Positions 2,757 through 36,749 are shown, counted from the stretch's first letter. The stretch: DNA of 64,000 nucleotides from Candidatus Heimdallarchaeota archaeon (GCA_011364965.1 RDOB01000002.1:160001-224000); one strand, 5' to 3'. Notes: generated by a model from the sequence alone, not told the origin. Translations and numbers: made by a program.

Positions 2757-2900
2757 TCCAAATGCACGAAAGTTTTTCTAGGCATATAGAAAAACTTGTT
2801 GATAATCTTCAATTAATTTAAAATGAACAATTTCTTAAAGATTACATAATACACTCATAAAACAATAACTTCAATACAAATTATAGGAATTTGATAAATT

Positions 2901-3611: not shown

Positions 3612-3612
3612 T

Positions 3613-4227: not shown

Positions 4228-4545
4228 TCTGAATCATACCCTCTTTCTTACATGAAGCGTATATATTTTGACGACATACTTCAGTAAGATTTTGGTATTA
4301 CAATTATTGAATGAGTGAATAATTTATATTAAACTATCTAGTTAGTCTATTCGACTTTCTTAATTACACTCGTTATCTGTCCCTTTTACGAGAAATTTAA
4401 GAGTTTTTCTTAAAATTTAAGCCAAATTTCCACTGTAACAATCTTTTTTGATGTCTTTTTTTTAGAGATTGATTATTAGATCAGAACCAAAGGAATATTA
4501 ATTTGACTTCATAAAGTTATTTTTTAATAAAAATAGGGTGTAAAT

Positions 4546-5532: not shown

Positions 5533-5571
5533 AAAATTCACACAAAAAAAGAAGAAAGGGGGGAGGGAATT

Positions 5572-15764: not shown

Positions 15765-15788
15765 AAGAAATGAAAAGGTTTTGAATTT

Positions 15789-18008
15789 ATGGTAAATATA
15801 AGTGTCGTTGAAAGAAAGCAAAAGGGACAATTTTTCACCAAAACTGAGATTGCAGTAAAAGTTGTAACGGAAATTTGCAATGACTTAATCGGGTATTTAG
15901 ATCAAGGTAATAAGAAAGACTATTCTATGTTTATAAACAAAATATTAAACATTAAGTTAATTGATCCCGCAATGGGTGATGGAGTTTTTCTTGTTGTTGC
16001 TTTAGAATATTTTACGAAAATCATTCAAGATATCTGGGGAGAAATAGTGAAAGATAATAATGTTCGTGCAAAGAATGATTTTAAAGAACGATTCAGGATA
16101 AATGGAATGAATAATGCTTTAACTGAATTAGATCGAGACCTGATTTGTCTTAAAATTCTATCTGAAATGATTTATGGAGTTGAAGTAGATCGTTTTATCT
16201 ATGAAAAAGCTATTCAAAATATTTTAGGTTTGTTTAATGTTCCTGAAGTTATAGAGATGGCAAAAAAACTCGTGAAAATTAAAATTAAACAAGGGAACTC
16301 TCTTATTTCTCCTTTACCATTAGAATTTAAAAAAAGTTTCAAATTTCTTTCTTTATTTAAATCAGAAATTAATTTAATTGTGAAAAATAGAGAAGCAATC
16401 TCTAAATTAATACTTGAAGGTTCTGATGTTTTAATTAAGAGAAAATTTATTGAAAACTCCCAAATTCGTAATTTAGTTATATCTAAGCTTAAAGGAGAAT
16501 TTTCAGATAGTAGTCAACTGCTTTACTTAACTTTGTTAAAGAAAAAAGAACAAATTCCTTTTTTTTGGGAGTTAGAATATCCTGAAGTCTTTTTATCAAA
16601 TAAATTTGGATTTGATGTGGTAATAGGTAATCCCCCTTGGGATAAATGGAAACTTTATGACAGAGAATGGCTAGGTTCGACTGTTCTTTCTTCTCCTGAA
16701 TTAATTAAGGAAACAATCAATGGTGCTCCATCAGAGTCTAAATTAAAATATCTTGAACTAAAAGAGTATTATAAAGAAACCTCAAAATACTTTAATACAT
16801 GCTATAAATGGCAACCTGGGGAAAAAAATCTTTATAAATTATTTCTGGAACGTTTTTATGATCTTACCTCTGAAATGGGTTATTTTGGAATAATTATTCC
16901 GAGTGGAATTCTAGGGGAATATTTTAGTAAATCATTACGAAAAATGCTTTTAGAGAATGTAAAATTAATATCTGTTACAGAAATTGTATCTAATAAGGAA
17001 ATTTTCTCTGAGGTTGAACCAGGGATTAGTATTTCAGTAATACTGGCACAGAAGAATACACCTGATGTTACTTTTCTCTTTTCTAAAGATATTCATTCTT
17101 TAGATGATTTTAAACAAGCTCAAATGCGACTAATAGAAATAAACAATACTAATCATGTTCGAATGAATCGTAATGAAATAATATCTACTTCCCCTCATTA
17201 TATCATTCCATCAATACGTAATAACAAGGAATTAGCAGTCACAAGAAAAATTATTTCATTTCCATCGTTAACGTCTAAAGAATGGAAATGTAAGACATCA
17301 CGTGGTTTAGACATGACCAATGATCGTAATATGTTAACAAAGGATCCAAACGCATATCCTTTGGTTGAAGGCAGACATTTAGTCAGATTGGGGTATGATG
17401 ATAAACACCCTCGTTTTTGGATTCAATCACCTCAAAGATATTTTGAAAAATTCCCTTTTTGGAGAAGAACTTTCATTGGATGGAAAAATTTCTCTGGTAA
17501 TCATAGAAGAAGAAGAATGCGAATAGCTATTTTCCCAAAATCCACTTTCATATCTAATAGCATTTTATGTCTTTATGATTTTCCTGAGCAGGAAGATATT
17601 GAATATTATTTAGCTGGGGTATTATGTTCCGTTCCTTTTGAATTTCGAATTCGACAGATTTGTTATGGATTAAATATCAATCAATTTATAATCAAAAAGA
17701 TGAATATCCCAGCTTATGAAATGAAAAATCCTTTGCACAAAGCACTAGTTAATTTAATCAAAGACTTCGAACCCATTGGGATAAACTGGGCTTATAGAAA
17801 AATGGAGGCCTCCTCCTCTTCCGCAAAATCAGCTCTCGAGAAAGATTATTATCTTTATATAGCCCAAATAGATGCATTGGTTGCTCTAATTTATAATTTA
17901 ACAAAAGAAGAGTTTATTGTTACGCTTCAAGCACATCAAAGGTTAGAATCTTCCTACACAGAAGCAGCAGTGAATTCTTATACAAAATTCTCCCAAAATT
18001 TTAATTGA
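15789..18008 (+). CDS. Gamma-class N6-adenine DNA methyltransferase (Eco57I-like)
   Basis: KGQFFT at residue ~12, IDPAMGDGVFL, GNSL, FFWELEYPEVF, GFDVVIGNPPW, NLYKLFLE. Confidence 0.9.
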   Translation: MVNISVVERKQKGQFFTKTEIAVKVVTEICNDLIGYLDQGNKKDYSMFINKILNIKLIDPAMGDGVFLVVALEYFTKIIQDIWGEIVKDNNVRAKNDFKERFRINGMNNALTELDRDLICLKILSEMIYGVEVDRFIYEKAIQNILGLFNVPEVIEMAKKLVKIKIKQGNSLISPLPLEFKKSFKFLSLFKSEINLIVKNREAISKLILEGSDVLIKRKFIENSQIRNLVISKLKGEFSDSSQLLYLTLLKKKEQIPFFWELEYPEVFLSNKFGFDVVIGNPPWDKWKLYDREWLGSTVLSSPELIKETINGAPSESKLKYLELKEYYKETSKYFNTCYKWQPGEKNLYKLFLERFYDLTSEMGYFGIIIPSGILGEYFSKSLRKMLLENVKLISVTEIVSNKEIFSEVEPGISISVILAQKNTPDVTFLFSKDIHSLDDFKQAQMRLIEINNTNHVRMNRNEIISTSPHYIIPSIRNNKELAVTRKIISFPSLTSKEWKCKTSRGLDMTNDRNMLTKDPNAYPLVEGRHLVRLGYDDKHPRFWIQSPQRYFEKFPFWRRTFIGWKNFSGNHRRRRMRIAIFPKSTFISNSILCLYDFPEQEDIEYYLAGVLCSVPFEFRIRQICYGLNINQFIIKKMNIPAYEMKNPLHKALVNLIKDFEPIGINWAYRKMEASSSSAKSALEKDYYLYIAQIDALVALIYNLTKEEFIVTLQAHQRLESSYTEAAVNSYTKFSQNFN

Positions 18009-18033
18009 GAAGTAAAGCGATCAATTGATTTAT

Positions 18034-20661
18034 TTATGCTTGTGAAGATAGAAAATCTTTGATATAAGCGATCTCTAACTCAGTAATTTTAAATAATTCA
18101 TAGATTATTTTATTGATTTTATCAAACTCACCAATAAATTTATTCGAGTTATTGAACATCTTCCTTACTAAATTTACCAAATACGAATAATTCTTTGAAT
18201 TTTTCATCAAAAAAATTGGAAAGTGTTCAATTTGACGTGGATAAAATTCATACACGTTGCCTAAATTTTTAATAGAGTTGAGTGCATAGAAAGTGAGAAG
18301 CTCTGAATTGAGCAATGAAAGCAAATAGTAAAGTATATCTTCCTCAGTTCGATATTCATCTTTGGGAATAAGCCAAATCACATCCTTTGAAGAGAGCGAA
18401 CCTAGTTGATCTAAAGCAAAGGTATTTTTTTTGGATTTATATGGTGAGACGATTTTTGGACGTTCCCAATCCATTGTATTTCTTTCATCACCTTTTCTCC
18501 ACAAAAAATATTTTTGAACCCTCGATCTGTCAAATAACAGCTCTTTATTATTTCTTAGATAATCCATGAGTTTAACATCTTCTAAAATATCCTTTTCTTT
18601 ATAAAAGGGAGCAAAAATCACTTTTCTTTTTTTATATTCAACAAAATAGTTTTTAATGTCTTTACCTTTGATCCATGTTCTCAAATTAGAATCTTTTATT
18701 CCCATCTCATTTGAAAAATAGTCAGGTTTGTTTGTTGTGAAAACTTTGTCACAACCAGTCTCCACTCCTTTACTTATATCAAAAAATTGATTCAGGGTAA
18801 AGTTTGAAGCTTCTCTAATCTTTTTAAGAATTTTAAGAGTCATTTCATTATGAAATATCCATTTTTGTGGTTTTAATGAATTTTGATGTACTTGTAAGAA
18901 AGAATCATAATTCAAATCATTTTTCGGAGTATAGCGAAAAACAGCGATAGAATTTGTTTTCATCTCCTTTTTTTTCAGTATTAATACAATATTACTTATT
19001 TGTACTTCATTGAATAAGGAAATATTCAAAAAATCGTGGATTTCAAGTATTTGAGCAGAATTTTGAATAAATTCTCGTGTTCTAGCTGCATAAACGCTAT
19101 GCAGTAAATATTTTGGCAAAATAAATCCCAATAATCCTCTTAAGGGTTTTAAAGCTTCAATGCTCCTAACCAGAAAAAAGTAGGAAATATCATTATTTCC
19201 TGTGTAGATTTCTGGATATATAAAGCTCAATCTTTTTCTCAATAGTAGAGGAAGATCTGTTAGAGCAATAAAAGGTGGATTTCCGAGAATAATATCAAAT
19301 TTAGGATTTTTTCCAATTTTGAAGTCTATCCAATGAAATAAATTCGTAATTGTTGAAGGTTGTAGATGAGGTTGAAGAATAGATAGCTCATTAGCCTCTC
19401 CCCTAGTCATTGGTGATGAAAAAACAGCATATAGAGTAGTATTTGTTTGAAATGTATTTGAAAACCTTATTTTTGTTAAGGAAATGTCATCTAGTTTTAA
19501 TTTTAATGATGTCCATCTAATACGATCTCCTTCAAAAATAAGATATCGAAATTTAGGAATTTTTCTGAATATTTCTAATAATCCCGAAATTGTATTTTCA
19601 TTATCGAATTCATTATTATTAACATTATTAAAAGTGATTCTATAAACGGGATACTTCAATTCTAAATTCTTATTAAATAAATCATCTCGAGAGCATTCTA
19701 TGTTATCATTTTCTTCTCTCTGGTTTTCATTATTTTGAAATCCAAATAATGAGTTCCCTTTATATATATTGCATCGAAAAGGAGTTTCTTTAGAGTTACT
19801 CGAATCAAAACTCCATAACCATAATTTTAATCTTGAAATAAGAATTGCTACTGTATCTATATCAATACCAAATAAAATATTTTCAACAATCATTTTTTTA
19901 ATCGTTATTTCATCAGTTGGGGTAGAAAAAGATTCAAGCATTTCATTAATTATATTTCCACAGGCAATTAGGAAAATTGAACTTCCAGTAGCTGGATCCA
20001 GTATTTTTAAATTTGAAATTTGCTTTATTATATGTCTATTATCTGAGGAATCCTCTAAGTGAATTCTAGATATCCAAGAATTCACCATTTTTTCCGAAAG
20101 TTTAAGAGCAAACCAATATGGAGTGTAAATTTGGCCAAAACTTTCTATGTCGGTCTTATATGATCTTGAAATGAACTTTACATAATCAAATATAGAAAAA
20201 TCTATTACATTACTTTCTTGATCATATTCTTTAGTATGGTCGTTGATCCAGACGTAATTTTCCTTAAATTCTCTTGCAATGTTTTTCCAATTGATTTTAT
20301 TCAATTTAACTTGATCTACATAATCATAATGGTCAAAAAGATTAAAACAAACCTCTTTTGGTATTATGGAATTTATAAAATTTAAAAAATCCTTTTCTTG
20401 AAACAAAATTTCCTCCCAGGTCGTAATCTCTCTATTTTTCTTATCTATTTTATTTGGATCCAAAAAAAATAATGAGATAAATTGTAAGAGGATTATTTTG
20501 GAATAATCCATTTGTAAATGGCTTGGAATGATAACATCTGCAATATTTTCATATAGATTTTCTAATAGTATGCGAATACTTCTTGGTAGTTGCTTAATGC
20601 CCTTATTTCTGTCCTTAAGACAAAATATTAGCTTTTCCTCCAACCAAGAGAATCTAATCAT
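18034..20661 (-). CDS. Gamma-class N6-adenine DNA methyltransferase with TaqI-like C-terminal TRD
   Basis: GQIYTP, ILDPATGSSIFL, FGIDID, GNSL, FDIILGNPPF, KGVETG, LLSLLNS. Confidence 0.88.
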   Translation of the reverse strand: MIRFSWLEEKLIFCLKDRNKGIKQLPRSIRILLENLYENIADVIIPSHLQMDYSKIILLQFISLFFLDPNKIDKKNREITTWEEILFQEKDFLNFINSIIPKEVCFNLFDHYDYVDQVKLNKINWKNIAREFKENYVWINDHTKEYDQESNVIDFSIFDYVKFISRSYKTDIESFGQIYTPYWFALKLSEKMVNSWISRIHLEDSSDNRHIIKQISNLKILDPATGSSIFLIACGNIINEMLESFSTPTDEITIKKMIVENILFGIDIDTVAILISRLKLWLWSFDSSNSKETPFRCNIYKGNSLFGFQNNENQREENDNIECSRDDLFNKNLELKYPVYRITFNNVNNNEFDNENTISGLLEIFRKIPKFRYLIFEGDRIRWTSLKLKLDDISLTKIRFSNTFQTNTTLYAVFSSPMTRGEANELSILQPHLQPSTITNLFHWIDFKIGKNPKFDIILGNPPFIALTDLPLLLRKRLSFIYPEIYTGNNDISYFFLVRSIEALKPLRGLLGFILPKYLLHSVYAARTREFIQNSAQILEIHDFLNISLFNEVQISNIVLILKKKEMKTNSIAVFRYTPKNDLNYDSFLQVHQNSLKPQKWIFHNEMTLKILKKIREASNFTLNQFFDISKGVETGCDKVFTTNKPDYFSNEMGIKDSNLRTWIKGKDIKNYFVEYKKRKVIFAPFYKEKDILEDVKLMDYLRNNKELLFDRSRVQKYFLWRKGDERNTMDWERPKIVSPYKSKKNTFALDQLGSLSSKDVIWLIPKDEYRTEEDILYYLLSLLNSELLTFYALNSIKNLGNVYEFYPRQIEHFPIFLMKNSKNYSYLVNLVRKMFNNSNKFIGEFDKINKIIYELFKITELEIAYIKDFLSSQA

Positions 20662-22023: not shown

Positions 22024-25000
22024 ATGGCATCCTCACAAAGAAGAAACGAAACATTTTTAGGTTATAGATCGTGGTTTGATGCGTTTCGATTTAATGAAAG
22101 AATCTCCCTTCCAATTTTTATTCTTGATTATCAAACATCAAGTTTTTGGAAGGAAAATGAGGAGACAATTAATGAGTATGAAACTGATCAAAATCACTCG
22201 CGATCCATGCTAATAAATGGTATACAAATTTTCTTCCTTGATGAAAATCATCAAAAACGTAAAGCATTTTTACGTCATGAACCTTACTTTTATCTCTTAC
22301 TTGAAAAAGACCTTTCAAAGGAACATCTCAATCGAATCATTTCACAAATCTATCAAATAGGAGAAAATCACGTTCAACAAATAGAGGAGAAGAATTACTA
22401 CGATGCTGCTGATCTTACATTCCTTGTTTCCAAGTCATTTCTAAAGATCACCGTTGATCATCCCGGTTCTGTTCCTAAATTACGAGATAAATGTGAAGCA
22501 TTAAATGGAGTAATCGAATGGCGAGAAGCAGATGTATTATTTCATCATAGAACTGCAATAGACCATAATTTACGCGTAGGATATTGGTATCAAGCTGAAA
22601 TCCGAGGTGGAGAAATTCAATCTATTTATCATATAAATAATAAAGCACCACCTCAATTAAAAATACTAGCATTCGATATAGAAACTGCTTTTGAAACAAC
22701 AAGAGAACCTAATCCGAACCGCGATGAAATATCAATGATTTCATTATTTACTGGAGATAGGAACTATCTTCTAGTAAATTCGTCTGTGGTTGAAACCAAG
22801 GATATCAGAAATATTGATATACTCCTAAGGTACGCTGATAAAGAACATAAGAAGCCTTGGGTGGATTGGCGATATTCAAATGATACTTTTGAAGCGCCTG
22901 AACATATTGAAAAGTATTATTTTAATATCCAGCTCTTTGATAACGAGCGAGAAATTTTACAGGCATTTTATCAAGTGATCAGAGACTATCAACCTGATGT
23001 TCTTGCTGATTTTTTTGGGGGAAGATTTGATATCCCTTTTCTTTCTGTGAGGTCAGAGCTTAACAATTTGTCTTTGGAAAGGGAAACTGGATTTAAGATT
23101 GTTTTTAAAATAGGTACCGGTAAAAGATCAAACGAAAAGACTGATTTGAAGAACAATTATACTCCTAATAGCATAGATTATGTTGAAGGAGCAGGAATTA
23201 TACATCTAGATGCCTTCCTATTTAATGAGAAATACAGTTACCTTCCCAAGAAGGATTTAGGTTTAAAACAGAGTGTTGAGAAAAAACTCAAAATTATTCC
23301 AATAGGTAGAGAAGCATTATTTGCTATCGAAGAAAATCCTGCCGAAGCTGCTGCATATGCGGGATGTGATGGATATATTTCGTGGAAATATGTTAAGGAA
23401 ATTGTCCTTGATTTTTTCATCTCTATGGGACAGATGTTTCCCGTTCCTGCTTCAGAGTTGTTATCCCGAAGATCAGGCTCTTTGGATGACTTATTGATCG
23501 ATGCAGAAAATTTCCAGCATGGAATTGTCAGTAAAAGAAAAATCTCTTCCAAAATAATTGAATCTTTTTCGCCTAAACTTGTGATAAACAATCTTGCTTA
23601 TACAGGTGGACTAGTTGAAGCTAGACGTCCTGGAATTTTCAGAAGTGATATTTTCTATGATTTTAAATCAGAGAAAGAAGCTTTAGATGAATTAAAGATT
23701 GCAATTGAAAAAGTAATACGAAAAGAAAGTATGGAATTAAATAAAAAGATTATAAAGGAGGAATTTGAGAAACAAGTCCTCTCTGAGCTTGGAGATGTGG
23801 TTATTGAGTATTCAGAAGATCCTTCTGAGATCTTATCACAAATTGAATCTGGAATGGTAAGAAATGGTGTTCCAAGAGCGAAATTAAAGATCCAGTTGAA
23901 TAAAATTCGGGATATATTAGAAAATATATCTGCATATCACCCTGAAGATGTGGAAAATATTATAGATGAGGTATTTCAAGCACTAGACAAATTAAAGCTT
24001 TCTAATGACAAAACAAAGTTAATTGGAGTTCATGTTGACGTTACAAGTATGTACCCATCTCAAATTCGTCAATATAAACTTCAACCTTCAGGAATTGTAC
24101 CTTTAACGAAATGCCAAACATGTGATTTATACGAAAAGGATGAAAGTTGCCTTTTTGACGGAGATTGGGTTATAAAAATTTCATCACAGCGTCCTTGTCG
24201 ATTTAAGGTGGAAGGTTCTAGTAAATGTGATCCCTCAGTTTGCAAAGCGGAGAATGAACTAAAATGTAAAAGGTATCAACCTTTGCAAGATTCACTTGGA
24301 CGATCTCAAGAGATTTATACCTTTAATGGAGAAAAAACAGAAGCTTATACCAGAAGAGGTGACCAATTAATACAAGTTCCAATAAGTGAAACCTATTTGG
24401 GTTTAACAACTGAACATGATCTTTTCATTTCTGTTCAACAGTGGTTACGAAGAAATGTAGAGGCAACTCAATTAACAACTAAATTGGACAAGAACTATTT
24501 TGATATATTTGAAGATCAACCTCCTGATTTTGAACTTCCTCCCAATACGTTCATGAGTATTGATACTAGAACGAAAAAAATTAGTATATTGTTATCTGTA
24601 AATTCTCGGGTGTGCCAAAAAGCATATAATTTTGTTGCCAGAATTATGGATGATTTTTTCAATACAAGGGTAAAGCATAAGTTAGAGGCCCAAAGACTTA
24701 AACAGGTTATTTCTCAAAGGAAATCTGCAAATTTAGCTATTCCTTCTGAATTAACTAGACTTCAAAAATTCCATGATAGCACACAATTAGGAATGAAAGT
24801 TCCTTTAAATAGTATATACGGACTTTTAGGTATGAAGGGAGGTGTAAGAAATGCTAGTACGCCCTGCGCTGGAATTACAACAAAATTGTCAGCAGATTTA
24901 ATCCATTGGGCTGCAGAAGAGCTAGAGTACGTTGGTTTAGTTACAGAATTAGATACTGATGGTATCTGGTTATGGGTACCCCAAGATTTTCCGCTTTTCT

Positions 25001-26427
25001 TTAAAGTTTGCCTTTCCAATCCTAATGTTAAGAACAGTAAGAAGCAATTTGAAGTAAGTCTAATCGACAAAATTCTCAACGAAAAGGTCAAGAAATTTTC
25101 TCAGAACGATAATTATTGGGTAAATGACGGGCATTGTATTAGTCGATCGCGAAAGAACTTAATTAAATTTGAACAAGACGGCCCCTATGATTTTCAGTTT
25201 GTCATGGGAAAAAAGAAATATATAATTTATAATTATGAAAATAATGAATGGCAAGAAAAAGAGATAACTGGATTAGAATCAAAAAGAGCAGACTTTTCAA
25301 AATTACAGAAATATTTTCAAGAAAAGATCATCAATAGCTATCTAGAGGACTATGATCCGCAAAATCCCATTACTTTAGAAGAGCTTTATCAAAATGCAGA
25401 TAAAATGGCTCAGAAAATAAAAGAAGAAATTTATAGCGGAACTATTGATCCTAGTTATTTCGTAAAACCAAAAGCTATCAACAAACCTTTAAGTGCTTAC
25501 AAATCCAAACTTCCCCAAGTGAACGCAGCTTATATCCTTCGAGACCTTGGTTTTTCTGTGGATCCAGGTACAAGGATCCAGATGTTAAATTTAAAAGGTA
25601 ATCATGTAATCCCTCGACAAGTTTTTGATTTTGATTTCAAGAAAATAAAGGAAGTTCTTGTTAAGCATGCAATTGCTACATTGAGTTTCATGCTGGGAGA
25701 ACTATCGACAAAAGAGGACCTAATGAAATTAATTGATGTGAATCAGTACTCAGAAGATCTTTTTGGTCCCGGAAGAATTTATGATAGAATGATAAAATAT
25801 CCAATGGAAATTCAACAAGTTTCGAGTAGTGCACAAACAACTTTGAATCTAAAATCGAAAATCAGAAGTAAGAAGACTGAGACTGATAGTAATTTTGAAG
25901 ATGAAGGCCCCATTACTGATGAGAAAGAAAATTTAAAAAATGAAAAAGCATTACCACATCTTAAACCAAAACCGAGACAAAAAAGAGGGATTCGCAGAAA
26001 GAAAAAGAGGCAGAGGAATGAAGCTCAGCCTATTGCACTTGATGCTTTACTTGAACCTTCACAATCAGTTAATAAGGGAAATAAAATTGAAATCAAAGAG
26101 AATGAGTATATAACAAGAGAAACCGAGGCCAAAAAAGTAATCCAAATAAGGGGCTCCTCCGATAAAGTAGAATCTGAAGTTTTTAGAGAAAATTCCCAGA
26201 ATAAATCTCTAAGTAAAGATGCTTTGGTTTCCACTGATGAAATTTCTGAGTTAGAATCAGATGAGATTTTTAATAATGGATCTGGCAATGGTAAGAGTGC
26301 AAAAAGTCTAGAGTTAGGAACGTTGGAGGAAGAGCTAATTGTCTGCTCGGAATGTGGGGCGTTAGTAAGCCCGCGAGAAATTACTAATGAAGGGTGTATT
26401 TTCTGTGGAGGAGAATCTTTAATCTAA
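22024..26427 (+). CDS. Family B DNA polymerase, eukaryotic Pol epsilon (POLE/Pol2)-like catalytic subunit
   Basis: AFDIET (ExoI), FDIPF, SYLP, YAGCD, GIFRSDI, HVDVTSMYPS, LQP, CxxC-x8-C, KVPLNSIYG, ELDTDGIW, FEQDGPY, GLESKR; C-terminal CSEC..CIFC. Confidence 0.95.
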   Translation: MASSQRRNETFLGYRSWFDAFRFNERISLPIFILDYQTSSFWKENEETINEYETDQNHSRSMLINGIQIFFLDENHQKRKAFLRHEPYFYLLLEKDLSKEHLNRIISQIYQIGENHVQQIEEKNYYDAADLTFLVSKSFLKITVDHPGSVPKLRDKCEALNGVIEWREADVLFHHRTAIDHNLRVGYWYQAEIRGGEIQSIYHINNKAPPQLKILAFDIETAFETTREPNPNRDEISMISLFTGDRNYLLVNSSVVETKDIRNIDILLRYADKEHKKPWVDWRYSNDTFEAPEHIEKYYFNIQLFDNEREILQAFYQVIRDYQPDVLADFFGGRFDIPFLSVRSELNNLSLERETGFKIVFKIGTGKRSNEKTDLKNNYTPNSIDYVEGAGIIHLDAFLFNEKYSYLPKKDLGLKQSVEKKLKIIPIGREALFAIEENPAEAAAYAGCDGYISWKYVKEIVLDFFISMGQMFPVPASELLSRRSGSLDDLLIDAENFQHGIVSKRKISSKIIESFSPKLVINNLAYTGGLVEARRPGIFRSDIFYDFKSEKEALDELKIAIEKVIRKESMELNKKIIKEEFEKQVLSELGDVVIEYSEDPSEILSQIESGMVRNGVPRAKLKIQLNKIRDILENISAYHPEDVENIIDEVFQALDKLKLSNDKTKLIGVHVDVTSMYPSQIRQYKLQPSGIVPLTKCQTCDLYEKDESCLFDGDWVIKISSQRPCRFKVEGSSKCDPSVCKAENELKCKRYQPLQDSLGRSQEIYTFNGEKTEAYTRRGDQLIQVPISETYLGLTTEHDLFISVQQWLRRNVEATQLTTKLDKNYFDIFEDQPPDFELPPNTFMSIDTRTKKISILLSVNSRVCQKAYNFVARIMDDFFNTRVKHKLEAQRLKQVISQRKSANLAIPSELTRLQKFHDSTQLGMKVPLNSIYGLLGMKGGVRNASTPCAGITTKLSADLIHWAAEELEYVGLVTELDTDGIWLWVPQDFPLFFKVCLSNPNVKNSKKQFEVSLIDKILNEKVKKFSQNDNYWVNDGHCISRSRKNLIKFEQDGPYDFQFVMGKKKYIIYNYENNEWQEKEITGLESKRADFSKLQKYFQEKIINSYLEDYDPQNPITLEELYQNADKMAQKIKEEIYSGTIDPSYFVKPKAINKPLSAYKSKLPQVNAAYILRDLGFSVDPGTRIQMLNLKGNHVIPRQVFDFDFKKIKEVLVKHAIATLSFMLGELSTKEDLMKLIDVNQYSEDLFGPGRIYDRMIKYPMEIQQVSSSAQTTLNLKSKIRSKKTETDSNFEDEGPITDEKENLKNEKALPHLKPKPRQKRGIRRKKKRQRNEAQPIALDALLEPSQSVNKGNKIEIKENEYITRETEAKKVIQIRGSSDKVESEVFRENSQNKSLSKDALVSTDEISELESDEIFNNGSGNGKSAKSLELGTLEEELIVCSECGALVSPREITNEGCIFCGGESLI

Positions 26428-26660: not shown

Positions 26661-28919
26661 ATGGAAAATATAGCTAATTTACAATCAATTGGATCACTTG
26701 AAAATTTTGCCTTAAATAAAACTGAACAATTTTTAAAACCCCGAACACCTTTAGATTTTCTATTTTTAGTATTATGCATATTATGGTGGATAATTGCAGT
26801 TGTTTTTCCAAGTACCCCAATTTTTCGAGGTACAATATTTAGTTTTGCTATTGTTGTGTTTTTCCTGATCCCTATATACATTCTTTTTAATAAAGAAGGG
26901 CATACCATGGCTTCTCCCCTGAACCGTGCCTTCAAACTTCTATTATTTTATCTATTGATTAATTTCTTTATTCCCTCTTCTAATATTCCCAATTTTCTTC
27001 CTCCAAGTATTCCGATAACGTATGGTGAGATAGAAAGGACAATTGTATGTCTATTAATACCTCTCACTATGTTAATAAAAGCCTTTGCCCTGGATACTCT
27101 GCGAATTGGATATTTATTTTACATTCAAAGCATTATACGAGGTTTCTGGACTGCATTTATTATTTTGTTCATTATGAAGGGGATTCAACTCTTTATTCCT
27201 ACTCCTCTAATAAATTTCGATTTTGATCTCTTTCTGCTACTAGCTTTTGGATTATATTTATTTGGATCAGTGTTACCAGGAGTACCAAAACAAATATCTT
27301 TTGATGCTAGTTCATTCATTAACCAGTATCAGGCGTTACAAACAAGAATGGAAAGAATTCGTGACGCATTACTTACATCAGCAATTACTTTGTTAATTTT
27401 CTTGTGGTTACAATGGATTAATTTATCAAATCGGGAATTATTTCAATATATCGCTTTTATTTGTTTAGTTATGGGTATTTTATTAATATTTGCACCCAAA
27501 AAGAAAACACAGAATGGATTAAATTCACTCTTAAGTTCTCTTTCCCAAAAGGGAAATTTTATTGATCCAAAAAGTCAGCTTGGTTCCAAGGTACAAGAAT
27601 ATGCAAAAAGCATACAAGCAGTAGAATTTAATAAACCAAATCAAGTATATTCGATCCCTTCTGAATCCCTTAAGTTAATAAGTAAAGGTAAAACCTCAAT
27701 TAGCGCTAATAAAGGTACTTTAGCTGTTCCAACTGTAACAGATAAGGGAACAGCTCTGGTACTAATGGGAAAATCAGAAATGACAACTGAAGAAGGTGAA
27801 AAGGTGCTTGGAGAAACAACAACAATATGGCTTCCACCAGAGGAATGGGATAGAGTAAAAGTAAACTTACAGCCCAAAAAGATGGAAGAAATTCTTCAAA
27901 CTGACCTTAAAGAAGCTGGTCTTGAGAATTTTAATGATTTAGTCAATAAATCCAAACACGCTTTAGAGGAGTTAAAATCCTGGAAAGGGCCCGAAAATAT
28001 ATTTTCTTCCGTGCTCGATGCTCCCACCTCTAAGTACACCATTACTGAAACAAAAGATTATTCTTTAGTGCGATTACCTGGAATTTTTGTTTTTGAGGCC
28101 AAAGGAATTGAATTAGTTAATATTCTGGGGGGATTAGTTAAAGTTATTGAAGTTAAAGGCGTAGGAGAGTATGTTCAAATTCTGGGAGGACTCGTAACTG
28201 TTTTAGATACTCCTGATTACGAATTTGTGCAAACACCTTTTGTTTCTGTAATTGATACCCCACAGGGAGAAATGGTTAGGGTATTTGGAATTAATATTCA
28301 AGAAGGAGACAAAATTGATTTAATTAAAATGAGAGAAAAAATTTTACGGGATCAAGCTAGTTTTGATTCTTTATTCACGCAAAAAATTGATACTATATTT
28401 CAAGAAAATCCCCAAATTTTATTAACTGAATCCAAAGGAACGACTGAAGGGTTTCTATTTGGGCAAGACGAAATATTAGGTGATCTGGTGGAACGTTCAA
28501 AGAAAAGTAAGAAGAAAGACAAACAAGTGAGAGTTCCTCCAATTCCTCCAATTCCTCCAATTCCTCCAAAACCAATTAAGCCAGACAAATCTACAGTACT
28601 TGGAAAATTCCAATGGACTAATCAAATAGAAAAGGTTTCATCGGAGAGCATCAAGGAAATTTCCTATAAAAGAGATATATCCAATGACATCCATTTATTA
28701 GAAAGTGATGACAAGGATTCTGAAGCTCATCCTCAGATTATTGAACTTCAAGATGCAATTAAAAGAACTGAAACAATGATTGATAATGCAGATGAAAGAT
28801 TAATTTCAGGTGAAATTTCAGAAGAAAAACACACAGAAATAATAGATCGTTTAATTAAAAGGAAGAAGGATCTCGAGGAGCAAATTGAACGAATTAATGG
28901 AAGATTGAAATTGCTATAA
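26661..28919 (+). CDS. Multi-TM membrane protein with a cytoplasmic beta-hairpin repeat region, a PPI repeat and a C-terminal coiled coil
   Basis: About 8 N-terminal TMs, ~17-18-aa repeats (V.E......V.I.GG), PPIPPIPPIPP, helical C-terminus. Confidence 0.8.
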   Translation: MENIANLQSIGSLENFALNKTEQFLKPRTPLDFLFLVLCILWWIIAVVFPSTPIFRGTIFSFAIVVFFLIPIYILFNKEGHTMASPLNRAFKLLLFYLLINFFIPSSNIPNFLPPSIPITYGEIERTIVCLLIPLTMLIKAFALDTLRIGYLFYIQSIIRGFWTAFIILFIMKGIQLFIPTPLINFDFDLFLLLAFGLYLFGSVLPGVPKQISFDASSFINQYQALQTRMERIRDALLTSAITLLIFLWLQWINLSNRELFQYIAFICLVMGILLIFAPKKKTQNGLNSLLSSLSQKGNFIDPKSQLGSKVQEYAKSIQAVEFNKPNQVYSIPSESLKLISKGKTSISANKGTLAVPTVTDKGTALVLMGKSEMTTEEGEKVLGETTTIWLPPEEWDRVKVNLQPKKMEEILQTDLKEAGLENFNDLVNKSKHALEELKSWKGPENIFSSVLDAPTSKYTITETKDYSLVRLPGIFVFEAKGIELVNILGGLVKVIEVKGVGEYVQILGGLVTVLDTPDYEFVQTPFVSVIDTPQGEMVRVFGINIQEGDKIDLIKMREKILRDQASFDSLFTQKIDTIFQENPQILLTESKGTTEGFLFGQDEILGDLVERSKKSKKKDKQVRVPPIPPIPPIPPKPIKPDKSTVLGKFQWTNQIEKVSSESIKEISYKRDISNDIHLLESDDKDSEAHPQIIELQDAIKRTETMIDNADERLISGEISEEKHTEIIDRLIKRKKDLEEQIERINGRLKLL
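28534..28569 (+). repeat. Perfect 9-bp tandem repeat (TTCCTCCAA)x4 encoding PPI repeats
   Basis: Read directly from the sequence. Confidence 0.95.
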
Positions 28920-28924
28920 TATTA

Positions 28925-30844
28925 TTAATCTTCCATTGGATTTAATGTTAGATTTAAACTTTCTATTAGGCTTTTAATCTTGTATTTAGCTTCCGCTGAG
29001 ACAAATTCTCCCTCCTTTTGCCTTAAAGATTTTATTCGATCTTGAATAGTTTTTTCTCGTTCTTTATCATTAATTTTCGGATTCAATTCGGTCCAATCTA
29101 ATAAAAAGGAAGCTGCACGCATGAAATAATCTAGTGATTTTGATTCTTCATTCTCGTTGAACGCTACAATCCCTGCATGGTGATACATTGTACTTGCTCT
29201 CCGAAAACTGATTCCTGCGTTGATTATGATCTTTTCTTGTTGTTCTTGCGCCTTCTGGTTTTTCAAATCATTTTCCAATCCTTTTGCTGCCTCCAAAAAG
29301 GCATATGCTGCTTTCTCGTACTGCTCGATCTGGAATAAGTTATTTGCATATTCAACATTAACAAAAACCATTTCAGAGGGTGAAAATTTTCCTTTTCTTA
29401 AATACTTTAACGCGTCTTCAAAAGAGCTTAATGCTGCACGAATTGCGTTATTTTTGTTTTCTAGCTTTCCTCGTTCAAATAATGTTAGACCTAATAGAGC
29501 TGAAGATTGTTCTGAAGATTCTTGTTTATAAAGGATTTCAAGAATTTTATTAAATAGCTTCAATGAGACATTTGGAGAATCAGAGTTTTTTGCTGTATCA
29601 AATAATGTTTTTGCTGCAAGAATGTTTTCATTTACATCAATGAAAATATTAATGGCAGTTAATAATAGTGAAAGCGCTTTTTCACTGTTTCCAAGTGAGA
29701 AGTATGCATTTGCTGCAAGTATTAAAGAGCGGGCCGTATCCTTCTCCCTTCCTGGTATTTTTTGAAGAAGATCGGCTGTTGTGATTCGTTGTTCAGCTGC
29801 TTTCCTAAGTAAACCTAATGCTAATGCTGGATTCTCGTTTTTTTCTTGGTCTGCTTGAGACGAAAGTTTACTTGAATAGATTGCAGAAACTTTTGCAGCT
29901 AAAGATATATCTGAAGATTTAGCAAGTTTTATTGCTTTTTCAAAATAGCTATTTGCTTCTTCACGTTTATTTTGTTCATGATAAGCAGTTGCTATTTCAT
30001 AATTCAATATTATTTGCGTTTTTGGATTTGTTAGCCAAAGTGATCCTGCTTGCATTAATTCTATTGCTTTATCAAATTCTTTTAGATAAGATGCAGCTTT
30101 TCCTGCCAAGAAAGAAGATTCTCCTGCTTTTTCGAGCTGTCTTACCTGTGCAAATAAATCAGCAGCTTTCTCAAAAGCTTCTTTTCCATCGTGAAAATTT
30201 CCACTTGCTAAAAAAATATTTCCAACTAACATGAAAGCTTCAGCTGAAGAATTATCATCAATGGTTTCCAAACGATTTGCTATCTTTAAAGCAGTCCAAA
30301 GCTGCTGTCTATCTTTTAGCTCTGTCCAAGCTTGCTTTGCAACTTCTAAGTCTCTTAATGCTTGTGAAATAGCATAATCTTCCCCTACATCCATTGAAAT
30401 TGATTTTGTTTCGATTTTTTCAGGCTCTCTTGACGATTTTGAAGCAATTTTATACCAAATATCTTCTGTTTTAAAGTTAGATTTTCTTTCCTTTAATATG
30501 TTTAAATATTCGTAAATATACATATTTAAATGCGTATTGATTAAATAGGAAGTTTCCTGATCCGAGATGAACGCTATGAAGAATACTCTTTCTTTTCCTC
30601 TTAATGAATGATCTTCCCAAGAATCAAACGCAACTCTGGCAACTGTTGTGTTACCAAGGCTTAACAGAGGCACAGTGAATTCCGTTCTTTGCGTATGACC
30701 GTGTTGTCCAAAAACAGTGACAGAGGCCAAATAAATTTGTAATGCTACTGATTCTGGGTCTTCTAAAGATGAATTAGGGTAAATTGAAATGATTTGGGGT
30801 CCAGATACTTCATCCCATTGAACTGCAAGTATTGATAAATCCAT
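28925..30844 (-). CDS. Longin/uDENN (FLCN/SMCR8-like) domain fused to a SNAP-like TPR solenoid
   Basis: WDEVSGPQIISIYP and DHSLRGKERVFFIAFIS, then repeated A..F..AA..F helices. Confidence 0.8.
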   Translation of the reverse strand: MDLSILAVQWDEVSGPQIISIYPNSSLEDPESVALQIYLASVTVFGQHGHTQRTEFTVPLLSLGNTTVARVAFDSWEDHSLRGKERVFFIAFISDQETSYLINTHLNMYIYEYLNILKERKSNFKTEDIWYKIASKSSREPEKIETKSISMDVGEDYAISQALRDLEVAKQAWTELKDRQQLWTALKIANRLETIDDNSSAEAFMLVGNIFLASGNFHDGKEAFEKAADLFAQVRQLEKAGESSFLAGKAASYLKEFDKAIELMQAGSLWLTNPKTQIILNYEIATAYHEQNKREEANSYFEKAIKLAKSSDISLAAKVSAIYSSKLSSQADQEKNENPALALGLLRKAAEQRITTADLLQKIPGREKDTARSLILAANAYFSLGNSEKALSLLLTAINIFIDVNENILAAKTLFDTAKNSDSPNVSLKLFNKILEILYKQESSEQSSALLGLTLFERGKLENKNNAIRAALSSFEDALKYLRKGKFSPSEMVFVNVEYANNLFQIEQYEKAAYAFLEAAKGLENDLKNQKAQEQQEKIIINAGISFRRASTMYHHAGIVAFNENEESKSLDYFMRAASFLLDWTELNPKINDKEREKTIQDRIKSLRQKEGEFVSAEAKYKIKSLIESLNLTLNPMED

Positions 30845-30874
30845 TCTTGAAGTATAACTCTCTTCAATTGGCGT

Positions 30875-32629
30875 TTATAATATCTCCTTTTGTTTAGGTC
30901 GTTTTTGTCTAAGATCAATTATCTTTTTCTCTGAAGTCGATTTTCTATCAACTAAATGTAATTTTCCCTCATTTAATTCAATCGATGGAGCTAAAGGTGT
31001 AAAAGATTCCTTACTTTGTAATCTGATAACAATATTAGCTTCTTTATCTGTATCAAGGATTTCCCACTTCAATAGAAGACAGGTTTTTTCTGAGAAAATA
31101 GAGGGTTTTAGGTGCGGAGGGTCTACTAAAATGATATCGACATCTGAGGGAATTCGATCAGTGAATACTAATTTAGATTCGAGAGGATTTATGAACTTGT
31201 AATACCAAAGAAATTCATAATTTAATGATTCAATTACTGGCTGAGATACTTTCTCTATTCTAATGATCTCGTTATTGTATTCAATTTCATCAATATAATG
31301 TCGTGTTAGTGGTTTTTCTTTGAATGAATACTTTAAATGAAAGTTATCCCCAGGAGCAAGAGTTCTGAACATCCAGCGAAATAACGTACTATCATGAGTT
31401 GGGATCGTTACAGGTTTGATTTTTAATCCAGCTTCCATATTGTTAACAATAAGCTCTGGAGGTACTACATCTTCAATAAGTACCTCTCTGAATAGCTCAC
31501 CAGAAGTATTGACAAAATTTAATTCTGTAGTGAGGTTTTGATCTATTGAATAGTATGAGCTCAGCACTAAAACTTCAGCTCCTCGTCTTAGTATAATAGA
31601 ACGTTCAATTCGTTTTCTGAGAATATATTCAACCGATTTTGATTGACCTGGATTTAATTGACCAGATTTCCAAGTATAAACCAAACCTTCTTCTGTTTTC
31701 TTTCTCTCATCTAGGTTAAGATCTGATTTAATATCTATTACCTGCCATTGAAAAGGAATTGTGTTTACTATCTCTAAGTTTAGTAATTCCTGTTCAAATT
31801 CATTTTTTACATCTGTTTTCGCAATGTAATCCAAATCTAACGTATCATTCATTCTTAAATCTGCAGCAAAATCCTCGAGATTAGGATCTTCTCCAATTAT
31901 AGTGGTGGATTCTTCCTCTATAACATCATTTTCAACAACACTTAAAGTGAAATTTGGTTGAATAATTTTTAATTCACCAGAGGAGTCTTTCACCACAGCA
32001 TTGGTTTCAATTGCAGTAAGTTTTTGGTCCCTTGTGACTTTAGAAACTGCAGCTAAAACATCATAAGTGTTGAGCAACGACTCCTTTTCTACTTGAAGTT
32101 GAGGAATCCTATAGTTTTTCTTGCTTAAAAGAACATCATCTTCTATAAAATCCTCGCTCTCAAGTGGAATCAAGTCCTCATCTACTTGGATAGGGAGTAA
32201 ATCAATTTCTGGAAGTATATCATCCAAAGAGGAAGATTCTTCTTCCTCGATGATTTCAGTCTTGGCTTTTGAGGCTTTCCTTCTATCCATTGTATCTAAG
32301 GCTATTCTGTAATGATGAGTAGCAGAAGTAAATCCAAAAGTTTTTCCTTTTTCAATAAGTGTTTCAGCAATTTCGATATTATCGCTCATTAAGTACCTAA
32401 GTATTGCTTTGCCATAGCAATTAGCTGCTTTATCCTCCTCTCCTAATTCAAGGAAAAGATCTCCAGCTAGTGTTAGATGCTGTGCAGCTCTATCTCTTTC
32501 CCCTATACTATCAAAACATCTCGCTGCCTCCTCAAAGATATCAGCAGCAATATTTATTGAATGTTTTGTAGCTTCTTTTCCTTCAGTAACCAGTTTAGTA
32601 CAATCAGTGTCTTTTATTGACTTCACCAT
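30875..32629 (-). CDS. SNAP-like TPR, acidic linker and three Ig-like (DUF11-type) beta-sandwich repeats
   Basis: AADIFEEAARCF..AANCYGKA; D/E-rich linker; three N/D-x-I/V-P...W..L(xPG) units. No signal peptide. Confidence 0.78.
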   Translation of the reverse strand: MVKSIKDTDCTKLVTEGKEATKHSINIAADIFEEAARCFDSIGERDRAAQHLTLAGDLFLELGEEDKAANCYGKAILRYLMSDNIEIAETLIEKGKTFGFTSATHHYRIALDTMDRRKASKAKTEIIEEEESSSLDDILPEIDLLPIQVDEDLIPLESEDFIEDDVLLSKKNYRIPQLQVEKESLLNTYDVLAAVSKVTRDQKLTAIETNAVVKDSSGELKIIQPNFTLSVVENDVIEEESTTIIGEDPNLEDFAADLRMNDTLDLDYIAKTDVKNEFEQELLNLEIVNTIPFQWQVIDIKSDLNLDERKKTEEGLVYTWKSGQLNPGQSKSVEYILRKRIERSIILRRGAEVLVLSSYYSIDQNLTTELNFVNTSGELFREVLIEDVVPPELIVNNMEAGLKIKPVTIPTHDSTLFRWMFRTLAPGDNFHLKYSFKEKPLTRHYIDEIEYNNEIIRIEKVSQPVIESLNYEFLWYYKFINPLESKLVFTDRIPSDVDIILVDPPHLKPSIFSEKTCLLLKWEILDTDKEANIVIRLQSKESFTPLAPSIELNEGKLHLVDRKSTSEKKIIDLRQKRPKQKEIL

Positions 32630-32634
32630 CTATT

Positions 32635-33018
32635 TTATCGACTAACTCGATATCTTGATTGTATTGTCAAAACTTCAGAAACTCTTGGAACATAATCTTC
32701 GAGCGGATCCCGGTTGTCATATGTGATCGATTGAAAACTTCTAGAAAATAATACCCATGCAACGCGCTTGGTATTACTTTTAACAAAACGTATTAAAGTG
32801 CTCGATGCCTCTAATCCCCCTTCTCCAAAATAGATAGTGCAAATGTCAATTATTTTTTTTTCTAGTTCATCATTTTGTTCTTTTCCAAAGCGGTGAATTA
32901 ATTCTAGTAAATCCGCTTCTCGAGGATTAATTTTTCTCTCTTTTAGTAGTTTAATGATAACAGCTCGATCCGTTAATATATTACTTGCCTCATCAAATGA
33001 GAGATTGATAAATGGCAT
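32635..33018 (-). CDS. Hypothetical protein, first gene of the operon
   Basis: 127 aa; its stop lies 5 bp before the next gene's start. Confidence 0.75.
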   Translation of the reverse strand: MPFINLSFDEASNILTDRAVIIKLLKERKINPREADLLELIHRFGKEQNDELEKKIIDICTIYFGEGGLEASSTLIRFVKSNTKRVAWVLFSRSFQSITYDNRDPLEDYVPRVSEVLTIQSRYRVSR

Positions 33019-33388
33019 CTCGATCCACTATCTTAGATTTTTGGTACTATGGGGAATTTTTTTTTAATAGCTGCTTTATTCTAATGAACTATAATTCAGG
33101 TACCTTTTGCAATTAGATCAAGCTTCTATTCATGTAAAGGAATAATCTATTATCTTTTTTTTCTATTTATTTTTTGTAAATATTTACATAAAAACATAAC
33201 CTAATAATCTTACAAATACCTTGCTGGAATGTAAAAAAAGAGAGTAGAAAGAACGACAAAGAAAAATTCCTGTTTTTATTTTTATAATGTTATTTTAAAG
33301 GGTTATTCTTGTTTGTTTGGTTTTTTGAACCAAACTCGATAAAATTCTTTATTAAATAATACTTTTCATGATTAAATAGAGATCAATA

Positions 33389-34090
33389 ATGACTTCGATA
33401 CCAAAATGCCTTAGTCTTCTAAGAAATGAACTTGAAATCCGTCCTAGACTAGAACTAGATGTTCCCAAAGGTTTTTATCGTGCAGCAGTACTTGTTCCTT
33501 TCCTATGCAGGCAGAAACAGTGGATCCTAATCTTTACGAGAAGAACAGATCTCGTAAGTCAACACAAAAACGAGATATCTTTCCCAGGGGGGAAGTTTGA
33601 TGTAGAAGACAAGACCTTGACTCAAACAGCTTTACGCGAGGCAAATGAGGAAGTAGGGATATCTCAAGTTGATATTATTGGGAAATTAGATGATATTATT
33701 ACCATCAGTAAATATATTGTAACTCCAGTTGTGGGATGGATCAAAAACGCAAAAAATTATTATGAATTAATAAATAGACCAGAAATTAATTATATTATTG
33801 AAACTCCTTTGCTTGAGCTGAGTAAAAAAGAGAACTTTTCAATTAAGGAAGTACCATATCAAAATGGATATATTTTTCACGTTCCGTTCTTTGATTATCA
33901 AAATGAAATTATTTGGGGAGCAACAGGGCGAATTTTAGTTAGCCTTCTTAATCAGATTAATAAGCTACCTTTGAATTGTCGTAAAAAGATTTTAGGAGTG
34001 CAGAGATGGGAAGGAGCTGATAATGAGGAAGTAGCTTACCACTACGCACAGGTGAAATCTCTTATATCCCCAGAAAGAAGAGAGTCTTAA
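33389..34090 (+). CDS. CoA pyrophosphatase, Nudix family (NudL/PCD1/NUDT7-like)
   Basis: AAVLVP, FTRRT..HKNEISFPGG, ALREANEEVG, IWGAT. Confidence 0.92.
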   Translation: MTSIPKCLSLLRNELEIRPRLELDVPKGFYRAAVLVPFLCRQKQWILIFTRRTDLVSQHKNEISFPGGKFDVEDKTLTQTALREANEEVGISQVDIIGKLDDIITISKYIVTPVVGWIKNAKNYYELINRPEINYIIETPLLELSKKENFSIKEVPYQNGYIFHVPFFDYQNEIIWGATGRILVSLLNQINKLPLNCRKKILGVQRWEGADNEEVAYHYAQVKSLISPERRES

Positions 34091-35603: not shown

Positions 35604-36476
35604 TTACTCCTTTGAAAGGTTCAAGCTAATAAATGTATTTTCGGGGCAGCTAAAGTAAATAGAATTACCTGCAGGAATCGGAATTTCAAGATCGTCAATC
35701 TCGATTACCGAGTTTGTACTTGGTTTCAAATAAATAGCAAAAAATGGTTGTTTTCCTTTACATGATGTCGTTTTAACAGATTTTGGTAAATAATAAAACG
35801 CGATTTTCCCCTCTGTTGTTGATGATGAAACATGTATCAATTTTACGATTAAATTCCCATCAGTTGCTGAAAAAATCTGTTGTCCCTTTTCTGGCTGAAT
35901 AGCTTCTTTTTGATCTTGATAATAATATAAAATCTCCGATCGTTTAACCTCAACTGGAGGCTTATTTGATTTTGATTTAGGTTCTGTTTCTGTATATATA
36001 TTTTTAGGTGAAGATGAGGGCATTGGAGTTACCTTGAGAGGTTCTGATTCTTTTATTGGTGAAAATTCTATCTTTGGCTTAGATGGAGGAATTGAACCTT
36101 CAAGAAATTCAAAAGAATTGATTGAATCCGAAATAGAGGTAGGAGATACGTCAATAGGCGCACTAGCTTTTACACCAGTAACTGAGATCACATCTAAGAA
36201 ATCTATAAAATCTGTTGTCTCATTTCCTTGATCCTCGGTTGAAATCCGATGAGTTAAACCTTTTTCAAGACGCATTTGACGAGCAATTTGGCTAGAAATG
36301 AACCTTTTCCTGACATTTGAATTGGCTCCAGTCCAAATGAAAATTCGTTTATCATCTTCGTTAACGAAAATTAGAACCTCTTCATCTTTTAAATCCTCTT
36401 GCGCTGAAGTAAACGAAACAGGAACGTATTCACCATCCATCGATGGCATATAAACATGAACTTGGGGATTACTCAT
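35604..36476 (-). CDS. Single-gelsolin-domain protein with a Pro/Ser-rich linker and an uncharacterised C-terminal domain
   Basis: LKDEEVLIF..IFIWTGANSNVRKRF..A..DQGNETTDF. ATG at 36476; the ORF track extends to TTG at 36506. Confidence 0.85.
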   Translation of the reverse strand: MSNPQVHVYMPSMDGEYVPVSFTSAQEDLKDEEVLIFVNEDDKRIFIWTGANSNVRKRFISSQIARQMRLEKGLTHRISTEDQGNETTDFIDFLDVISVTGVKASAPIDVSPTSISDSINSFEFLEGSIPPSKPKIEFSPIKESEPLKVTPMPSSSPKNIYTETEPKSKSNKPPVEVKRSEILYYYQDQKEAIQPEKGQQIFSATDGNLIVKLIHVSSSTTEGKIAFYYLPKSVKTTSCKGKQPFFAIYLKPSTNSVIEIDDLEIPIPAGNSIYFSCPENTFISLNLSKE

Positions 36477-36749
36477 ATATTTGCCTTCTAAACACAAGTT
36501 AGTCAATAAATTTCACTTCAATGAACTTTTCAGTCATTGTAAGATCCTAGATCATTCAAATTGTGAAAGATACTGACTTATTGCCTGATTTGAAAGAATA
36601 TAATTAACTAAATCACCCATGTCTATTAAATGTTACACAATAAACATTCCACAGTTAAAAGACATGAACTCAAAGGAAAATCACCATATTAATAGTGACA
36701 ATAATATTTATAATTCAGATGTAGAGGGGATTAATCAAGGAAAAAACTC

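Follow-up and report, generated by a model that had tools for sequence, protein, structure and literature searches.

The closest described relatives of the system reported here are longin domains that belong to GTPase-activating proteins (GAPs). In SMCR8, C9orf72, FLCN and NPRL2 these domains are marked by a Gly-Pro (GP) motif that opens strand 2, together with an arginine finger, and a class of Heimdallarchaeia longins bears the same marks (PMC12290439, Traffic 2025). C9orf72 also has an essential W33-D34 pair five residues ahead of its G38-P39; the longins of adaptin, TRAPP and DENND are without the GP motif (PMC12290439). Asgard NPRL2-like longins are found fused to two-component domains (Liu et al., bioRxiv 10.1101/2020.10.19.343400), and in the cultured Lokiarchaeon MK-D1 genome layout rarely helps to pair GTPases with their regulators (PMC10933270). 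Here we describe a row of three genes at positions 28925-33018 of a 64,000-nucleotide stretch of DNA (the window; GCA_011364965.1, RDOB01000002.1:160001-224000) from the 2.97-Mb, 87%-complete genome of a Candidatus Heimdallarchaeota archaeon, one of which encodes a longin of this type followed by a long solenoid of tetratricopeptide repeats (TPRs). A previous interpretation of the same DNA from its letters alone (the sequence-only reading) had proposed that the row may be undescribed. This holds for the arrangement, since we found in the literature no description of a longin-TPR fusion, of a protein combining a SNAP-like TPR with triple sandwiches, or of the operon, but not for the longin class itself, which is already published.

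The three genes are minus-strand open reading frames (ORFs) coding for 127 (P0001, gene 1; 32635-33018), 584 (P0002, gene 2; 30875-32629) and 639 amino acids (P0003, gene 3; 28925-30844). Their coordinates confirm the intergenic gaps of 5 and 30 bp given before. A simple 19-residue Kyte-Doolittle scan found no transmembrane segment and no hydrophobic N-terminal signal in any of the three proteins (maxima of 0.68, 0.86 and 1.44, against a cut-off of 1.6 per window), in agreement with the sequence-only reading on this point also. Mean column identities of 67% (P0001), 59% (P0002) and 65% (P0003) among homologues show that selection acts clearly on all three genes, the trio being far more constrained than chance ORFs. 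Upstream of gene 1, a 370-bp AT-rich intergenic region (33019-33388, minus strand with respect to the trio), which is shared divergently with a NUDIX gene, is the sole sizeable non-coding gap around the trio, so that it is the likely candidate for the promoter region.

In the AlphaFold2 model of full-length P0003 (pLDDT 86), two parts can be distinguished, as had been anticipated from the sequence: an N-terminal longin domain (residues 1-137; 30434-30844), assigned to the FLCN/SMCR8/C9orf72/NPRL2 (GAP) type from the model, hhalign and profile searches, and a solenoid of about 13 TPR-type helical hairpins (residues 159-634; 28943-30370). Residues 3-123 adopt the beta-beta-alpha-beta-beta-beta-alpha topology of longins at a pLDDT of 72-91, with DSSP placing strands at 3-11, 15-22, 54-59, 67-77 and 85-95 and helices at 30-47 and 96-123. 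Translation and alignments locate two motifs within this fold. A WD-x3-GP motif (W10, D11, G15 and P16; 30797-30817) runs from the last residues of strand 1 into strand 2, with G15-P16 opening the strand at 15-22, and R82-G83 (30596-30601), in the loop between strands 4 and 5, provides a candidate arginine finger, whose counterparts would be R164 in FLCN, R147 in SMCR8 and R78 in NPRL2. The spacing of the first motif equals that in C9orf72.

These residues are also the ones that are retained most widely. In an alignment that takes in orthologues, homologues from the sister family (f2, see below) and a receiver-longin paralogue from the same genome, the best-kept positions of the domain are W10-D11, G15-P16, P23, Q36, G46, F73, D78, R82-G83 and F88, with R82 invariant, the paralogue included. 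Among 89 more distant relatives the near-invariant residues are the W, the G-P pair, one G and the R, the last being conserved in at least 90%. That WD-x3-GP and R82-G83 are both kept by the orthologues, the receiver-longin paralogue and these 89 relatives is what argues for a domain of GAP type. A further well-conserved stretch, the loop F-G-Q-H-G-H-x-Q-R that follows longin helix 1 (residues 44-53; about 30686-30715, minus strand), has F45, G46, Q47, G49 and R53 almost invariant and is at the same time the least confident stretch of the longin model (pLDDT <50), a pattern that would fit a segment becoming ordered only upon partner binding.

Residues 1-140 of P0003 gave no match to any Pfam family at E<=5, Clat_adaptor_s included. 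A connection to FLCN can be drawn through another protein of the same genome, 430 amino acids long, which the P0003 longin profile matches over the Arg-Gly region and which scores 22.7-24 bits with Pfam Folliculin. Its family comprises 77 homologues, largely labelled as Hodarchaeales, most of which carry a precomputed Pfam Folliculin assignment. An hhalign comparison of the P0003 longin profile with that of this family gives an alignment of 137 columns in which both motifs coincide (probability 76%, E 2.2e-5), such that R82, within D-x-S-L-R-G-x-x-R, falls on the A-R-G stretch of the Folliculin-Pfam family. PDB sequence searches with the profile of this Folliculin-like family, and with one single protein, returned no credible match. 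The gene for the 430-aa protein lies in a row (contig C12:24000-31000 of this genome, locus L021; genes at 1543-5155, minus strand) with genes for a 165-aa Roadblock/LC7 protein, a 110-aa zinc-ribbon protein and a 462-aa protein, for which no Pfam match was obtained.

Searching 1.84 billion representative proteins with the P0003 longin profile identified 271 relatives, of which 96 were scanned with Pfam for their architectures; the counts given here are out of 89. Besides longin-TPR proteins, these architectures include receiver-longin proteins of about 295 amino acids (17 of 89), and 12 of the 89 contain a GTPase domain of the Arf family. In six long sensor proteins the Arf domain immediately precedes a P0003-type longin and is itself preceded by another, weakly similar longin, so that a GTPase is flanked by two longins within a single chain. 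These six proteins (P0183, P0188, P0216, P0218, P0222 and P0249; 833-2317 aa) continue with PAS/GAF domains, and in four of them a histidine-kinase ATPase domain is recognizable. The nearest paralogue of the P0003 longin in the same genome is a 293-aa receiver-longin protein. It is encoded in a row (C11:566000-576000, locus L022; genes at 1824-6350, minus strand) together with a 462-aa Rag/Arf-like GTPase, a 507-aa PAS histidine kinase and a 217-aa Ras-family GTPase, and the gene content of this row suggests a two-component system that is connected to small GTPases by a GAP-type longin. The repeated fusion of the longin family to Arf domains, and the position of this paralogue next to a Rag/Arf-like GTPase, together show an association of the family with Arf- or Rag-type GTPases.

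The genome encodes at least 45 Arf/Ras-type GTPase domains versus only three proteins with a longin of the P0003 type. Comparison with the Arf domains found in the fusion proteins singled out no partner for P0003, the best Arf-like genes of the genome showing a generic 30-35% identity. Pfam C9orf72-like found no match in the genome, and its controls were silent too. Four small GTPase genes of the Arf/Ras type lie within the window itself, each of them on the minus strand (1-465, 482-1006, 3613-4227 and 45835-46425). The longin-TPR fusion also occurs outside the trio: a distant 677-aa longin-TPR protein of another genome (P0232; L024:4715-6748, plus strand), with WDE..GP and VRG, has as neighbours two small ORFs and an aldehyde ferredoxin oxidoreductase gene, all unrelated to the trio, and no P0001- or P0002-like gene beside it.

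P0002 was likewise modelled at full length (AlphaFold2, pLDDT 77), and the model bears out the order of solenoid, acidic hinge and three sandwiches that had been proposed for it. Its N-terminus (residues 1-128, helices at 7-128; 32246-32629) forms three TPR-like hairpins of SNAP-like appearance. An acidic linker of mostly low confidence follows (residues 129-264; 31838-32245), delimited by pLDDT, charge and alignment, with pLDDT <50 at 122-137, 159-163 and 234-264 and a net charge of -24 over residues 119-262. It contains the conserved short motifs LP..D.LP, LIPL..D.F and IPQL. Within the linker lies a small conserved alpha/beta module that the sequence-only reading had not seen (residues 166-231; 31937-32134; DSSP, pLDDT 64-87); its element order is beta-alpha-beta-beta-beta (core 169-231) and L178, S196, R200 and G218 are invariant. 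The profile of this module had no sequence match in the PDB, and hhalign found no relation to the sandwich repeats. The C-terminal part (residues 265-570; 30920-31837) consists of three eight-strand beta-sandwiches at 267-360, 367-464 and 471-568, which are homologous to one another (hhalign probability 85% for the first and second, 40% for the first and third). Three lines of evidence, each weak alone, point to the DUF11/CARDB type for these sandwiches: shape matches in Atlas at TM-scores of 0.17-0.30 and Atlas language-model features at scores of 0.84-0.88, both to be taken as leads only, and a Pfam DUF11 match (E 8e-4) in one of 66 P0002 homologues, the window's own P0002 not being matched.

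The helical parts of P0002 and P0003 both find their best structural matches among ordinary TPR proteins (LGN/Pins, SPY, APC and CTPR). It should be noted that the structure searches used the full-length models, whose TPR matches crowd the lists and mask the longin and the sandwiches. Pfam and NCBIfam gave for the three trio proteins only TPR families and one sub-threshold match, of SNAP to P0002. P0001 has no match in Pfam, NCBIfam or, by sequence profile search, the PDB, and an Atlas feature search reached a best score of 0.83 without indicating a family. Its alignment has invariant motifs, and hhalign detected nothing in common with the small neighbour of the distant longin-TPR paralogue or with the N-terminal domain of the Arf fusion proteins.

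Homologues of P0003 and P0002 bear labels of metagenome-assembled genomes such as Hodarchaeales, Hodarchaeota, Heimdallarchaeota and Promethearchaeota. Full-length P0003 homologues were found in 20 of the 21 other genomes of the family to which the window belongs (f1), at 44-51% identity, and in both genomes of the sister family f2, at 27-30% identity. In one f1 genome (G052) the homologue is split across two contig ends, and in another (G059, 74% complete) the only matches are to longin-only paralogues. No full-length homologue was found in the remaining 59 genomes of the class, where matches are TPR-only or longin-only. P0002 is present in 23 and P0001 in 22 of the 24 genomes of the order Hodarchaeales, at adjoining coordinates, and wherever P0001 was found (22/24) it lies directly upstream of P0002. 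The gene order P0001-P0002-P0003 is unchanged in the 14 f1 loci that were fetched, with stop and start codons that often touch or overlap; the fixed order and these junctions are consistent with co-transcription and coupled translation. In G069, an f2 genome, the trio is collinear at only 25-38% identity (P0002 and P0003 being adjacent, and P0001 and P0002 adjacent across contig ends). The three genes are thus tightly linked and co-conserved across the order, which answers in the affirmative, for this order, the question raised with the sequence-only reading of whether the operon is conserved in Asgard genomes.

Our preferred reading, to which we assign a probability of about 0.5, is that the trio encodes a Hodarchaeales-specific cytoplasmic assembly whose GAP-type longin regulates an Arf- or Rag-type GTPase encoded elsewhere in the genome. 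The three genes would form one transcription unit for this assembly, and its functional core would be the N-terminal longin of P0003, of Asgard NPRL2-like or FLCN-SMCR8 type. This longin, possibly working as a homodimer, is envisaged to dock on the nucleotide pocket of a small GTPase of the Arf or Rag family; the most likely action would be that of a GAP, in which R82 supplies the arginine finger while WD and GP line the pocket. Scaffolding and binding would fall to the TPR solenoid of P0003 and to P0002 as a whole, the conserved motifs in the acidic linker of P0002 being candidate ligands of a TPR groove, and P0001 would be a third, small subunit. That the three proteins bind one another in a complex, as had also been proposed earlier, is inferred from gene linkage.

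Several observations weigh against this reading. Within f1, linkage is weak evidence because synteny extends there over the whole neighbourhood (gelsolin, HMG-CoA reductase, NUDIX, the trio, a seven-transmembrane protein and PolB); as f1 is syntenic throughout, the f2 genomes are the informative cases, and in one of these (G070) a different gene directly follows P0001-P0002, while the homologue of P0003 is found on a separate short contig, where its neighbours are different. The contigs concerned are C330 and C816 (loci L017 and L020), and the arrangement points either to a split operon in this genome or to a break in the assembly. The operon neither contains nor adjoins a GTPase gene, the closest one being about 13 kb away, and among the public sequencing runs carrying the operon DNA there is no RNA run. 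The link of P0003 to FLCN is indirect, running through an intermediate family at moderate probability: Pfam Folliculin (PF11704) matched three other loci of the genome but not P0003, and a PDB profile search with the P0003 longin did not reach FLCN, SMCR8, C9orf72 or NPRL2. Both structure searches with P0003 (Foldseek and VIA) were filled by TPR matches. The longin is followed by TPR hairpins, and a DENN domain is absent from that position. Finally, no second longin subunit was recognized, the profile of P0001 not matching that of the P0003 longin (hhalign probability 0.3%). The eukaryotic longin GAP complexes, by comparison, are heterodimers of two longin proteins with DENN domains after the longins.

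Among the alternatives, the one that we would place nearest to the preferred reading, while still regarding it as rather doubtful, is a generic TPR scaffold or co-chaperone-like complex in which the longin acts as a dimerization or docking module and controls no GTPase. Longin domains do have roles unrelated to GTPases (PMC10933270), the operon is without a GTPase, and the structure searches are led by peptide-binding TPR proteins such as LGN, kinesin light chain, Hop/Sti1 and MamA; yet the residues of the longin that are most conserved in the 89 distant relatives are precisely the GAP-type marks, W, GP and R, and the family has repeatedly been fused to Arf GTPase domains. Those fusions are also compatible with a GEF (guanine nucleotide exchange factor) or a GTPase-effector platform, which would use the same longin-GTPase contact for exchange or recruitment in the way of the TRAPP, Mon1-Ccz1 and DENN longins: the two-longin Arf fusions indicate association and not the direction of regulation, and most eukaryotic longin regulators are GEFs (PMC12290439). 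We consider this unlikely in view of the GP motif and the Arg-Gly pair, which are reported to be specific to GAP longins (PMC12290439). An extended form of the preferred reading, which appears to us similarly unlikely, would see in the trio a self-contained small-GTPase module of ancestral style, where a homodimeric GAP longin on a TPR scaffold unites the WD motif and the arginine finger, which in eukaryotes would later have been divided between C9orf72 and SMCR8, and a partner with peptide motifs in a flexible acidic linker and three appendage-like sandwiches couples the Arf/Rag cycle to cargo or membrane binding. If true, such a module would be a functional forerunner of adaptor-type complexes and not their homologue.

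Likeness to such complexes was the proposal of the sequence-only reading, according to which the two large proteins would correspond, in an archaeon, to membrane-acting subunits of adaptin/COPI or TRAPPII/III. The inventory and order of domains are indeed reminiscent of these (a longin; helical repeats followed by sandwiches, as in Trs130/TRAPPC10; an acidic, flexible linker that holds short conserved motifs), and regulation of an Arf-type GTPase by the longin, if it occurs, would make a link to membranes plausible. Foldseek, which had been suggested as a check, listed Trs130 of TRAPPII (over the whole length; E 2.5e-3, probability 0.21, TM-scores 0.11/0.08) and the delta-COP mu-homology domain (probability 0.57-0.82, TM-score <=0.28), along with ribophorin I, among the weak matches to P0002; however, these matches have TM-scores of 0.08-0.28, all below 0.3, and root mean squared deviations above 20 Å. 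Moreover, the solenoids are TPR and not HEAT/ARM trunks, just three hairpins in the case of P0002, the sandwiches point to DUF11/CARDB, and the longin is of another type, having the GP motif that adaptin and TRAPP longins lack. Neither Clat_adaptor_s nor TRAPP (Bet3) was matched in the 87%-complete genome, so that TRAPP core and adaptin partners are undetected, a weak point given that the controls for both were silent; Adaptin_N, at another place in the genome, reached 15 bits and so stayed under its cut-off. The trio proteins have neither amphipathic nor transmembrane segments, and no evidence of membrane contact. The sequence-only reading had named matches confined to generic TPR and DUF11 proteins as the outcome that would speak against it, and this is largely what emerged. 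We therefore judge the coat or tether proposal improbable. What survives of it is a set of linked genes for proteins that are cytoplasmic by sequence, without the likeness to trafficking complexes; a membrane or trafficking role as such is neither supported nor excluded.

The same reading had ascribed alpha-SNAP-like repeats to both large proteins. Both do contain TPR hairpins, but SNAP itself stays below threshold, and the similarity is one of resemblance only. Pfam SNAP is nevertheless the top family for the N-terminus of P0002, matches 44 of 66 P0002 homologues at E<=0.01 and is precomputed on most P0003 homologues, and gamma-SNAP and Sec17 rank high in the VIA structure search, observations that would favour an adaptor akin to SNAP, serving an AAA+ unfoldase or SNARE-like proteins. 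On P0002 the score is 24.4 bits against a cut-off of 25, and the match extends over model positions 50-143 of 282, about a third; gamma-SNAP and Sec17 are level with other TPR proteins in the structure searches, SNAPs being tied with or beaten by unrelated ones, and no AAA+ or SNARE-like gene is linked to the trio. This is the alternative to which we give least credence.

The P0003 longin resembles the Asgard NPRL2-like and FLCN-SMCR8-type longins in its fold, in having the GP motif where strand 2 begins, in the conserved Arg-Gly pair and in its occurrence in Heimdallarchaeia, and its paralogues share with the NPRL2-like longins of Liu et al. the fusion to two-component domains. It differs from the GP-motif longins so far described in Asgard archaea in being fused to a TPR solenoid of about 480 residues and in belonging to a fixed three-gene operon. 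Like FLCN-FNIP, the NPRL2-NPRL3 pair of GATOR1 and C9orf72-SMCR8-WDR41, its family is tied to Arf/Rag-type GTPases, here through fusions and gene neighbours. By contrast with C9orf72-SMCR8-WDR41, where the WD motif and the arginine are on different subunits, P0003 has both on one domain; and unlike the eukaryotic longin GAPs it has no direct sequence match to the corresponding families in Pfam or the PDB, its GAP activity being predicted from sequence. LGN/Pins, kinesin light chain and gamma-SNAP/Sec17, to which the solenoids are structurally similar at 9-20% identity, possess neither a longin nor sandwich repeats.

The gene downstream of the trio is convergent, its stop codon lying 5 bp from that of P0003. 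It encodes a 752-aa protein (26661-28919, plus strand) that begins with about seven transmembrane segments, continues with repetitive, beta-rich sequence and the run PPIPPIPPIPP, and ends in a charged helical tail; no Pfam family matches it. As a possible fourth member of the operon it was set aside for now, given that the f1 neighbourhood is wholly syntenic and that the gene does not adjoin the trio in f2. The wider syntenic block is flanked by genes for a 1467-aa family-B DNA polymerase (22024-26427, plus strand) and a 300-aa gelsolin-repeat protein (35604-36506, minus strand). Elsewhere in the window, three large genes for proteins of 831, 739 and 875 amino acids with Eco57I/MmeI/N6_Mtase domains form a methyltransferase cluster (13269-20661), which has the lowest GC content of the window (0.28-0.31) and may be a restriction-modification island. 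DNA near-identical to 28925-33400 is present in 20 public DNA runs from seven studies, covering marine sediment, estuary, mangrove and soil; four of the 20 runs are dated 2025 and share a single organism name, and the assembly may derive from some of the 20.

Ras-, Arf- and Rag-type GTPases number in the dozens in Asgard genomes, and almost none of them has an assigned regulator. The operon is a fixed, order-wide unit around a longin of apparent GAP type, and it offers a concrete set of proteins for joint expression; at the level of annotation, three proteins entered as 'hypothetical' or 'TPR' can be named as one conserved unit. The Hodarchaeales are close kin of the eukaryotes. With a protein that begins with the type of domain by which folliculin and C9orf72/SMCR8 turn off small GTPases, the trio is a testable candidate for a GTPase regulator in this lineage, and it could show whether control of GTPases of the folliculin/C9orf72 type predates eukaryotes and what the longin was attached to before it acquired a DENN domain.

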